IMG/VR virus record: IMGVR_UViG_2537561928_000019
Reading direction: 5' to 3' (one strand)
DNA from: a virus
Lineage: Duplodnaviria; Heunggongvirae; Uroviricota; Caudoviricetes
Length of the DNA: 4,256 nucleotides
Under the pieces are notes generated by a model. The model saw nothing but the letters and a program-made list of their open reading frames with translations. It ran no database searches and was not told the DNA's origin. Positions 1,377 through 4,254 of the stretch are shown piece after piece. The position numbers and the translations under genes were made by a program. Each line of letters opens with the position of its first letter. Within the stretch, counting starts at the first letter, position 1.

Positions 1377-1474
1377 GTGGTAATTATCTTTAGTAATCAC
1401 TAAACAAGCAAATACTTGACTTAATGGTTTATTAAACACTAAACTCTCAAAAAAAACACTAAACCGAGGAAGGT
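1377..1474. promoter_or_regulatory. Divergent promoter/operator region (OR-like) between paaR2 and the ydaS-like gene
   Basis: Palindrome TTTAGT-aatc-ACTAAA at 1389-1404. Three ACTAAAC-containing elements at 1398-1405, 1438-1444 and 1459-1465. Rightward candidate promoter: TTGACT 1416-1421, 18-nt spacer, TAAACT 1440-1445, then GAGGA SD 1466-1470 before ATG 1475. Leftward candidate promoter (minus strand): -35 TTGCTT (rc of 1406-1411), 17-nt spacer containing the palindrome, -10 GATAAT (rc of 1383-1388). Confidence 0.6.
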
Positions 1475-3381: not shown

Positions 3382-3804
3382 GTGGCAAAAGTTTTTACAC
3401 AAGAAGAGCGGGAAAAAATTAAAGGGCAGGTTGTTGAACTCGTACGCCGGAGTGGGCGTGAGACGTTACGGCAACTGGAAGTCAAGACAGGTGCGACAAG
3501 ATATCTGATGAGCGTTCTCGCAAGAGAGCTGGTTGCCAGCGGCGATGTATACAACTCTGGTTACGGGTTATTCCCGTCTGAACAGGCGCGTAAGGACTGG
3601 CAAAATGCCCGTAAAAAGCTCTCAAGGGCAAAGCTGAAGGAACCATCTGCGGTTGATCCGGACCTTATCTGGTCATTACCTGACGGAGAAATACGTCGTT
3701 ACGACAGGCGTCATAATATGATTTGTACTGAGTGTCGTAAAAGCGAAGTTATGCAGCGCATATTGTCGTTTTATCAGGGGGATGTCCGGTATTTATTGAA
3801 GTGA
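3382..3804 (+). CDS. Hypothetical protein, 140 aa, function unknown
   Basis: Track ORF 3382..3804(+). GTG start with AGGAGG SD at 3372-3377; an in-frame stop 18 nt upstream limits any extension. Starts 40 nt after the initiator stop, so probably the same operon. The protein is basic with a possible HTH-like N-terminal segment (RETLRQLEVKTGATRYLMSVLARELV) and a C-terminal CTECRK motif. I do not recognise the family. Confidence 0.6.
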   Translation: MAKVFTQEEREKIKGQVVELVRRSGRETLRQLEVKTGATRYLMSVLARELVASGDVYNSGYGLFPSEQARKDWQNARKKLSRAKLKEPSAVDPDLIWSLPDGEIRRYDRRHNMICTECRKSEVMQRILSFYQGDVRYLLK

Positions 3805-3933: not shown

Positions 3934-4254
3934 TCACAACCAGCCGACGCTCTCTCGCCATTTATAATTAGTAACTTTATCATTTTCGCTTATTTTTTTA
4001 GATATAGAGCGCGGCTCTCTTCCTAGATACTCAGATATTTCTATCGGGGACAAATCAAAATCAACAAGCATGACTCTAAGTTTTTCCATTTCCTTTAAAG
4101 TCCAAGGCTTGCCATAATTTTCATAAAGAGATACCTTATGCTCCCTGATAGTTCGCTTTCTCTGAGTTTCACTTTCCCTCTGAAAAATCTCGCTTTTAAA
4201 TTGTGAACGGAACTCTTTACAGAAGTTGTTATCAGTTTTTTTGTTATATAGATT
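3934..4254 (-). CDS. 3' part of a minus-strand gene running off the right edge; hypothetical protein with a Myb/SANT-like HTH motif, encoded in low-GC DNA
   Basis: Manual translation of the reverse strand gives a 107-codon open frame from the window edge to TGA at 3936..3934: ...NLYNKKTDNNFCKEFRSQFKSEIFQRESETQRKRTIREHKVSLYENYGKPWTLKEMEKLRVMLVDFDLSPIEISEYLGREPRSISKKISENDKVTNYKWRESVGWL. Absent from the ORF track because the start is outside the window. The segment KPWTLKEMEKL...ISEYLGREPRSISKKI resembles a Myb/SANT-type helix-turn-helix. The region is clearly more AT-rich than the rest of the window. Confidence 0.5.
   Translation of the reverse strand, partial: NLYNKKTDNNFCKEFRSQFKSEIFQRESETQRKRTIREHKVSLYENYGKPWTLKEMEKLRVMLVDFDLSPIEISEYLGREPRSISKKISENDKVTNYKWRESVGWL

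Follow-up and report, generated by a model that had tools for sequence, protein, structure and literature searches.

A leaderless paaR2 repressor gene in the immunity switch of a CP-933P-like prophage and the promoter geometry of its homologues

Gene content and prophage context of the window

The window, the whole stretch of 4,256 nucleotides analysed here, represents the immunity region of a lambdoid E. coli prophage of the CP-933P type. The paaR2 gene (1005‒1376, minus strand) encodes a CI-like repressor of 123 residues with the N-terminus MQKKEIRR and an N-terminal helix-turn-helix domain, as assigned from its open reading frame, allele identity and a PDB match. PaaR2 is 98‒100% identical to its positional counterparts in E. 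coli genomes, O157:H7 among them, and its residues 1‒71 match 'Phage repressor protein CI' (PDB 7nkv/8c3k, E = 1e-39). A Pfam scan of PaaR2 gave no match and no S24 peptidase domain, and the peptidase motif has been reported missing (PMC8630535). Since the C-terminal S24 autocleavage domain is absent, we rejected PaaR2 as a LexA/S24-type CI in the strict sense, and the protein is therefore not SOS-inducible.

Downstream of paaR2 and co-transcribed with it lie the genes for the antitoxin PaaA2 (793‒984, minus strand; Pfam PaaA2, E = 1e-19) and the toxin ParE2 (513‒791, minus strand; Pfam ParE_toxin, E = 2e-16), and the three-component paaR2-paaA2-parE2 module is present in the window. Divergently from paaR2 runs ydaS (1475‒1777, plus strand), a Cro-like regulator gene identified from its open reading frame, Pfam (YdaS_toxin/HTH_3) and the published switch (PMC8630535), followed by the YdaT-family gene ydaT (1774‒2199, plus strand). 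The open reading frames and Pfam also define a DUF1391 gene (69‒302, minus strand), an O-like replication gene (2271‒3341, plus strand) and a DUF977 gene (3382‒3804, plus strand). A low-GC open reading frame at 3934‒4256 (minus strand) leaves the window at its right end; it codes for at least 106 residues ending in ...KWRESVGWL, has no Pfam match and lies beyond about position 3780, the limit of similarity to most E. coli relatives.

Of 5,426 complete E. coli genomes, 593 (about 11%) carry the immunity core (1005‒1777) with at least 95% identity, and the identities reach 99.5%. No complete E. coli genome carries the whole window at 100%, and the best match reaches 96.9% identity over 89% of the length, which makes the window a mosaic relative rather than CP-933P itself. 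Genes and gene order are the same as in CP-933P (EDL933; Sp12 in Sakai), while the flanking replication genes of the window are mosaic with respect to it. Escherichia phage Evi (LR597642.1, 40 kb) carries the immunity core at 98.4% identity together with a gene at the paaA2 position, so that the switch is not limited to cryptic prophages.

We tied the window to the published CP-933P sequence through the primer table of PMC8630535, of which all eight tested primers match the O157:H7 locus (L001) exactly. The window is identical to this locus from inside paaR2 through alignment column 107, a stretch that covers the whole leftward promoter. CP-933P and the window agree fully in the leftward promoter, the first three operator repeats (IR1‒IR3) and the start codon context, and both have the PL/OL region and the YdaT site. 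The only intergenic differences from O157:H7 are T1447 in place of G and eight A's at 1449‒1456 in place of seven. Because of the extra A, the intergenic region of the window measures 98 bp instead of 97 bp, and the spacing between IR3 and IR4 is 20 bp instead of 19 bp. These differences fall on IR4 and the PR start and leave PRM unchanged; the published experiments were performed with the 97-bp allele, which thus differs from the window on the PR side. PaaR2 itself is 98% identical to the O157:H7 allele and differs at residues 66‒67 (EV versus GG).

Divergent promoters in 98 base pairs

The open reading frame listing and direct reading of the sequence place the paaR2-ydaS intergenic region at exactly 1377‒1474 (98 bp). 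From it paaR2 (minus strand) and ydaS (plus strand) diverge, driven by back-to-back promoters, PR having been located in a scan and PRM on inspection. On the minus strand, the leftward promoter PRM933P consists of a weak -35 hexamer TTGCTT (1406‒1411, read directly from the sequence), a 17-nt spacer (1405‒1389; minus strand, G followed by TTTAGTGATTACTAAA) and the -10 hexamer GATAAT (1383‒1388), which stands out from sequence, shuffle test and homologues alike. The 6-nt gap TACCAC (1377‒1382, minus strand), defined by sequence and homologue comparison, separates the -10 from the paaR2 ATG (1374‒1376, minus strand), which according to the sequence and to published 5' RACE and Edman data (PMC8630535) is also the leftward PRM-type +1. 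The palindrome TTTAGTaatcACTAAA (plus strand 1389‒1404; TTTAGT-N4-ACTAAA) takes up 16 of the 17 spacer bases. No GGAG, GAGG, AGGA or longer Shine-Dalgarno motif occurs 4‒12 nt upstream of the ATG. A preliminary description, made from the sequence, had listed all of these elements as well as the missing Shine-Dalgarno sequence, and had placed a rightward promoter and a third ACTAAAC site within the same 98 bp; every element was recovered exactly where it had been read (leftward elements at 1411‒1374, minus strand).

The leftward -35 agrees with TTGACA at only three of six positions, which is why a generic sigma-70 scan did not return this promoter; we verified it through direct reading and a custom scan. 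Such a poor -35 fits an activator-dependent promoter of the PRM type. When the intergenic region was shuffled with its dinucleotide composition preserved, a promoter with at least 5/6 matches in the -10 and at least 3/6 in the -35 fell 5‒7 nt before the ATG in 180 of 20,000 shuffles (about 0.9%), and one of the same quality lay exactly 6 nt before it in 64 of 20,000 (0.3%). In the minimum-free-energy fold of the predicted paaR2 mRNA the first 35 nt are unpaired, and the fold is weaker than those of shuffled sequences (z = +1.49). Directly after the AUG, codons 2‒4 of paaR2 contain an A8 homopolymer (1365‒1372, minus strand).

On the plus strand, the promoter scan places PR933P at 1416‒1445, with TTGACT (1416‒1421), an 18-nt spacer and TAAACT (1440‒1445). 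The Shine-Dalgarno sequence of ydaS, GAGGAAGG, and its ATG are read together at 1466‒1477 (plus strand), and the cro-like ydaS is conventionally leadered.

Operator repeats and remote control sites

Four copies of ACTAAAC (at 1399, 1438, 1458 and 435) occur in the window against 0.52 expected, a count reached in none of 200 shuffles. In the published switch, four equally spaced 18-bp inverted repeats with the consensus half-site GTTTAGTAA were described, IR1 lying over PRM and IR3 over PR, with left half-site conservation absent from IR2 and IR4 (PMC8630535). In the window, IR1 (CTTTAGTAATCACTAAAC, 1388‒1405, core 1389‒1404) fills the PRM spacer and is defined by the repeats and by the published footprint and assignment (PMC8630535). 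The degenerate IR2 (1408‒1425, computed position; right half TGACTTAAT) lies over the PR -35, and IR3 (GTTTATTAAACACTAAAC, 1427‒1444; repeats and PMC8630535) covers the PR spacer and -10. IR4 (1447‒1464), found from the repeats and the alignment, contains the third intergenic ACTAAAC (1458‒1464) and lies over the PR start region. Relative to the PRM +1 (1376), the centres of IR1‒IR4 are at -20.5, -40.5, -59.5 and -79.5. By analogy with lambda OR2, IR2 at about -40 would occupy the activating position for PRM. Natural alleles of the intergenic region measure 96, 97 and 98 bp (window 1447‒1457; L001, L002, L003); they combine the G/T change with a run of seven or eight A's, with or without a preceding C, between IR3 and IR4, and accordingly bring the IR3-IR4 spacing to 18, 19 or 20 bp.

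Three repeat families (D1‒D3) connect 402‒441 with 1388‒1464. There, scan and repeats reveal a PL933P-type promoter with OL operators (395‒445, minus strand), composed of TTGACT (428‒423), a 16-nt spacer and TAAACT (406‒401). Its hexamers are identical to those of PR, and it is flanked by ACTAAAC-type repeats, including the ACTAAAC at 435‒441. This stretch corresponds to the published PL933P/OL region, and the PL primers of that study match the window at 395‒416 and 492‒512 (PMC8630535). At the junction of the ydaS stop and the ydaT start, TTGATTcatgaaAATCAA (1767‒1784) matches the published operator consensus of the CII-like YdaT, TTGATTN6AATCAA (PMC9986795), perfectly. This site lies inside the PRE933P fragment, whose published primers match the window at 1683‒1701 and 1783‒1802 (PMC8630535).

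Published experiments on the CP-933P switch

The switch of CP-933P was studied experimentally by Jurenas et al. (2021, mBio 12:e02947-21, PMC8630535). With EDL933 RNA, their 5' RACE mapped the PRM933P start to the paaR2 translation start. When paaR2-His was placed at +1 of araB, it was translated as a leaderless mRNA, and the product matched in size the protein made from the native promoter; Edman degradation of the leaderless product yielded MQKKE, and mass spectrometry gave the expected mass (PMC8630535). The Edman data concern the engineered leaderless pBAD construct, and the native-promoter product was compared by size only, on a Western blot (PMC8630535). The 5' RACE comprised five clones per end, and the methods of that paper describe no minus-TAP control, so that RACE alone does not formally exclude a processed 5' end. 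The ydaS 5' RACE was reported as 'in line with' PR933P (PMC8630535).

DNase I footprints in the intergenic region extend over about 78 bp for PaaR2 and about 65 bp for YdaS, and PaaR2 represses PR, while it activates PRM at low level and represses it at high level (PMC8630535). Beyond parE2, a PL933P promoter with OL sites is repressed by both PaaR2 and YdaS, and PRE933P is activated by YdaT and silent without it (PMC8630535). Operator binding and bistable expression of CP-933P are documented in the same study by EMSA, footprints, gfp fusions and single-cell data (PMC8630535).

These experiments bear directly on what the preliminary description had proposed. The predicted transcript start at the AUG agrees with the 5' RACE from EDL933, whose promoter is identical to that of the window, and the suggested autoregulation through the spacer operator agrees with IR1 over PRM and with the dual effect of PaaR2 on this promoter (PMC8630535). 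The 5' RACE and leaderless constructs it put forward as checks had in fact been carried out, with the start at the paaR2 AUG and MQKKE as the N-terminus (PMC8630535). The leaderless paaR2 switch is thus correct but already known, on experimental grounds since 2021 (PMC8630535).

Conservation of the promoter-to-start distance among homologous loci

A protein search returned PaaR2-like proteins of 118‒140 residues as well as S24 repressors of about 210 residues with PF00717, which have only the DNA-binding N-terminal domain (60‒70 residues) in common with PaaR2. Scanning one genome per species, we obtained 65 homologous loci, 64 of them usable, anchored their upstream regions on the conserved repressor N-terminus and sorted them into four groups, A‒D. 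A YdaS-like gene is divergently co-conserved in most of the homologous loci. PaaA2 or ParE2 was found beside none of the 64 repressors at E ≤ 1e-3, which places the toxin-antitoxin insertion outside the conserved module.

Group A comprises 38 of the 64 loci from 29 genera (30 with the window), belonging to Enterobacterales, Burkholderiales, Nitrosomonadales and others, and includes both short and S24-type repressors. In this group the homologous promoter block is kept and a Shine-Dalgarno sequence is absent. The block is composed of the PR -35 on the opposite strand, TTGCTT or TTGATT, the operator, and a -10 that is mostly CAAAAT, CACAAT or TAAACT; positions 2, 4 and 6 of the homologue -10 hexamers (A, A and T) are invariant. 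An ATG is found at the position aligned with that of paaR2 in 38 homologous loci, 5‒7 nt past the conserved -10. With the window included, the gap between -10 and ATG is 6 nt in 36 of 39 loci, 5 nt in two and 7 nt in one. These gaps have 36 different sequences, and their mean pairwise identity is 0.27, as compared with 0.78 for the -10 and 0.77 for the -35. From this alignment, the length of the 6-nt gap is constrained while its sequence is free, the outcome expected if the +1 must fall on the AUG.

In group B (10 loci from Pasteurellaceae and Orbaceae) the promoter and operator are kept 19‒29 nt before the ATG, and AGGAG, GGAGG or GAGGT is located 4‒8 nt from the ATG. The variable leader length of this group shows that the spacing can vary once the gene has a Shine-Dalgarno sequence. 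Group C (nine Photorhabdus/Xenorhabdus loci) keeps the promoter block and has an insert of 54‒85 nt, with no well-placed Shine-Dalgarno sequence. The Photorhabdus/Xenorhabdus loci L005‒L013 and L020 have either a long leader or a second, proximal promoter (TATAAA/TAGAAA, 4 nt from the ATG). Group D consists of seven loci (L019, L022, L043, L045, L061, L067, L069) with no recognisable homologous promoter and was left unclassified. In one of them, from Xenorhabdus khoisanae (L019), tandem units of about 22 nt (AATAGTGTTATGTGTAC...) take the place of the operator/promoter block 130 nt upstream of the repressor ATG. In the Morganella psychrotolerans homologue (L016, about 1491‒1510), the A7 run equivalent to the homopolymer of paaR2 is out of frame (ATG AAC ATA AAA AAA T...), which could be due to a pseudogene, an assembly error or slippage.

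Repressors of about 210‒250 residues from many genera (L023, L024, L026‒L031, L033, L035, L039, L042, L046 and others) combine the DNA-binding domain of PaaR2 (at most about 76% identity) with an S24 peptidase domain, and have the same operators and leaderless geometry. Judging from these relatives, an inducible repressor of wide distribution appears to have a domain-swapped, non-SOS variant in PaaR2. We further consider it probable from the sequence comparison that leaderless expression is an ancestral, length-constrained trait of a module made up of a repressor with the PaaR2-type N-terminal domain, GTTTAGTAA-type operators and a YdaS-type Cro in prophages of Enterobacterales, Burkholderiales and Nitrosomonadales, with short PaaR2-like as well as SOS-type S24 repressors, and that two lineages (Pasteurellaceae with Orbaceae, and Photorhabdus with Xenorhabdus) have departed from it. 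Our limited search of the searchable literature returned no description of this family-wide leaderless pattern.

Discussion

We interpret the 98-bp region, with a probability of roughly 93%, as the OR-type operator/promoter region of a CP-933P-like lambdoid prophage, in which paaR2 is leaderless and PaaR2 and YdaS form a bistable switch. At the weak, repressor-modulated promoter TTGCTT-17-GATAAT, RNA polymerase begins transcription with the A of the paaR2 start codon, and the paaR2-paaA2-parE2 mRNA consequently has neither a 5' UTR nor a Shine-Dalgarno sequence. As with the lambda cI mRNA made from PRM, translation presumably begins with 70S ribosomes on the AUG at the 5' end. PaaR2 competes with the Cro-like YdaS for the four GTTTAGTAA-type inverted repeats spaced by about 19‒20 bp, of which IR1 occupies the PRM spacer, IR2 combines a position of about -40 from PRM with the PR -35, IR3 covers the PR spacer and -10, and IR4 covers the PR start. 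The outcome is repression of PR and autoregulation of PRM that is positive at low and negative at high PaaR2 levels, giving a bistable switch. For this explanation, the start site, N-terminus, footprints and reporters come from the literature, the geometry, allele identity and gap conservation come from the present analysis, and the 70S route and the activating repeat are what we infer.

The leaderless reading has to be weighed against paaR2 expression from a leadered transcript, another start codon, or both, with GATAAT being incidental. Beyond the ATG at 1376 the frame indeed stays open for another 114 nt upstream, with one ATG (at 1481, giving a 158-residue open reading frame) and two GTGs (at 1439 and 1400), and some gene callers lengthen the protein to 144‒150 residues (P0001, P0002). 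However, none of these upstream candidates has a Shine-Dalgarno sequence; the N-termini of the homologues align from the M at 1376, many of them with in-frame stops 0‒9 nt upstream, and the RefSeq annotation is the 123-residue form. Together with the published Edman sequence MQKKE, the intact mass and the 5' RACE at the AUG (PMC8630535), this makes a leadered or extended paaR2 very improbable, and the 158-residue form was rejected on the homologue alignment, the upstream stops and the published protein chemistry. A mere coincidence of promoter and ATG in an AT-rich intergenic region is less credible still. About 0.9% of the dinucleotide shuffles do yield an equivalent promoter 5‒7 nt from the ATG, and nine sites of similar promoter quality occur in the window, but the 6-nt distance is kept in 36 of 39 loci while the gap sequence is randomised, and the start was mapped directly by experiment (PMC8630535); conservation and published mapping thus refute chance as the explanation.

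A third possibility concerns the supply of PaaR2 rather than the start of PRM: leaderless PRM would provide the PaaR2 for maintenance, and establishment PaaR2 would come mostly from YdaT-activated PRE933P, on a transcript with a long leader that runs antisense through ydaS. Lambda cI is expressed by such a dual supply. The window has both the YdaT operator (1767‒1784) and the PRE fragment in intact form, and PRE933P is silent unless YdaT is made (PMC8630535). On the PRE transcript, however, the paaR2 AUG is preceded by ...ACUAAAGAUAAUUACCAC, which has no Shine-Dalgarno sequence, so that efficient internal initiation at paaR2 is not obvious. We regard a predominant role of PRE in establishment as rather unlikely, at perhaps one chance in a few; a read-through contribution to PaaR2 is plausible and would complement the leaderless reading rather than exclude it.

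As a slightly variant allele of the switch published in 2021, the window matters little alone. It serves as a positive control, since a reading of the sequence alone correctly recovered a leaderless mRNA, a rare feature in E. coli. The only addition made here is the family-wide leaderless geometry with its leadered replacement in two clades: the constancy of the 6-nt distance over 30 genera and two independent shifts to leadered starts provide modest new support for selected leaderless initiation. The comparison also identifies natural pairs of leadered and leaderless loci that are suited to experiment. If the pattern is true, the family series suits the questions of what makes leaderless mRNAs the preferred form for temperate phage repressors and whether this preference is imposed by the host lineage.

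Comparison with lambda and Rac

The likeness to lambda cI and PRM pointed out in the preliminary description is borne out in detail. Lambda PRM reads TAGATA-17 nt-TAGATT-TAACGT-ATG with OR3 (37951‒37967) inside the spacer; like its counterpart in the window it is a weak leftward promoter, and it has the 17-nt spacer, the operator within it and the 6 nt from -10 to ATG in common with the window. OR3, OR2 and OR1 are centred at -19, -42 and -66 in lambda, and IR1 of the window has the same position as OR3. Divergent repressor and cro genes, a leaderless repressor mRNA and A-rich first codons are likewise common to both, and lambda resembles the CP-933P-type switch in its remote OL/PL and in a CII-type activator with a PRE promoter. 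On the other hand, the operators of the two systems have no detectable sequence homology, the window has four repeats at a spacing of about 19‒20 bp whereas lambda has three 17-bp operators, PaaR2 differs from lambda CI in having no S24 autocleavage domain, and the toxin-antitoxin pair of the window occupies the place of lambda rexAB. The first codons of lambda cI (ATGAGCACAAAAAAGAAA, L004 720‒741) and paaR2 (ATGCAAAAAAAAGAAA, 1359‒1376) have an A-rich CAAAAAAGAAA-like stretch in common, and a Klebsiella homologue (ATGAGCACAAAA, L015 1501‒1512) starts with the same 12 nt as lambda cI. These common A-rich starts may be coincidental, or leaderless mRNAs may be under selection in their 5' coding sequence.

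The Rac prophage of E. coli K-12 offers a second comparison. Its CI-like repressor gene racR is divergent from ydaS-ydaT, as paaR2 is in the window, and the strongest promoter of racR, PracR3, gives a leaderless transcript (PMC9638921). Unlike the window, the Rac racR-ydaS region has three mapped promoters and different operators (nine monomer sites), with one operator located inside coding sequence (PMC9638921), and the YdaS and YdaT proteins of Rac are only about 26‒31% identical to those of CP-933P (PMC8630535).
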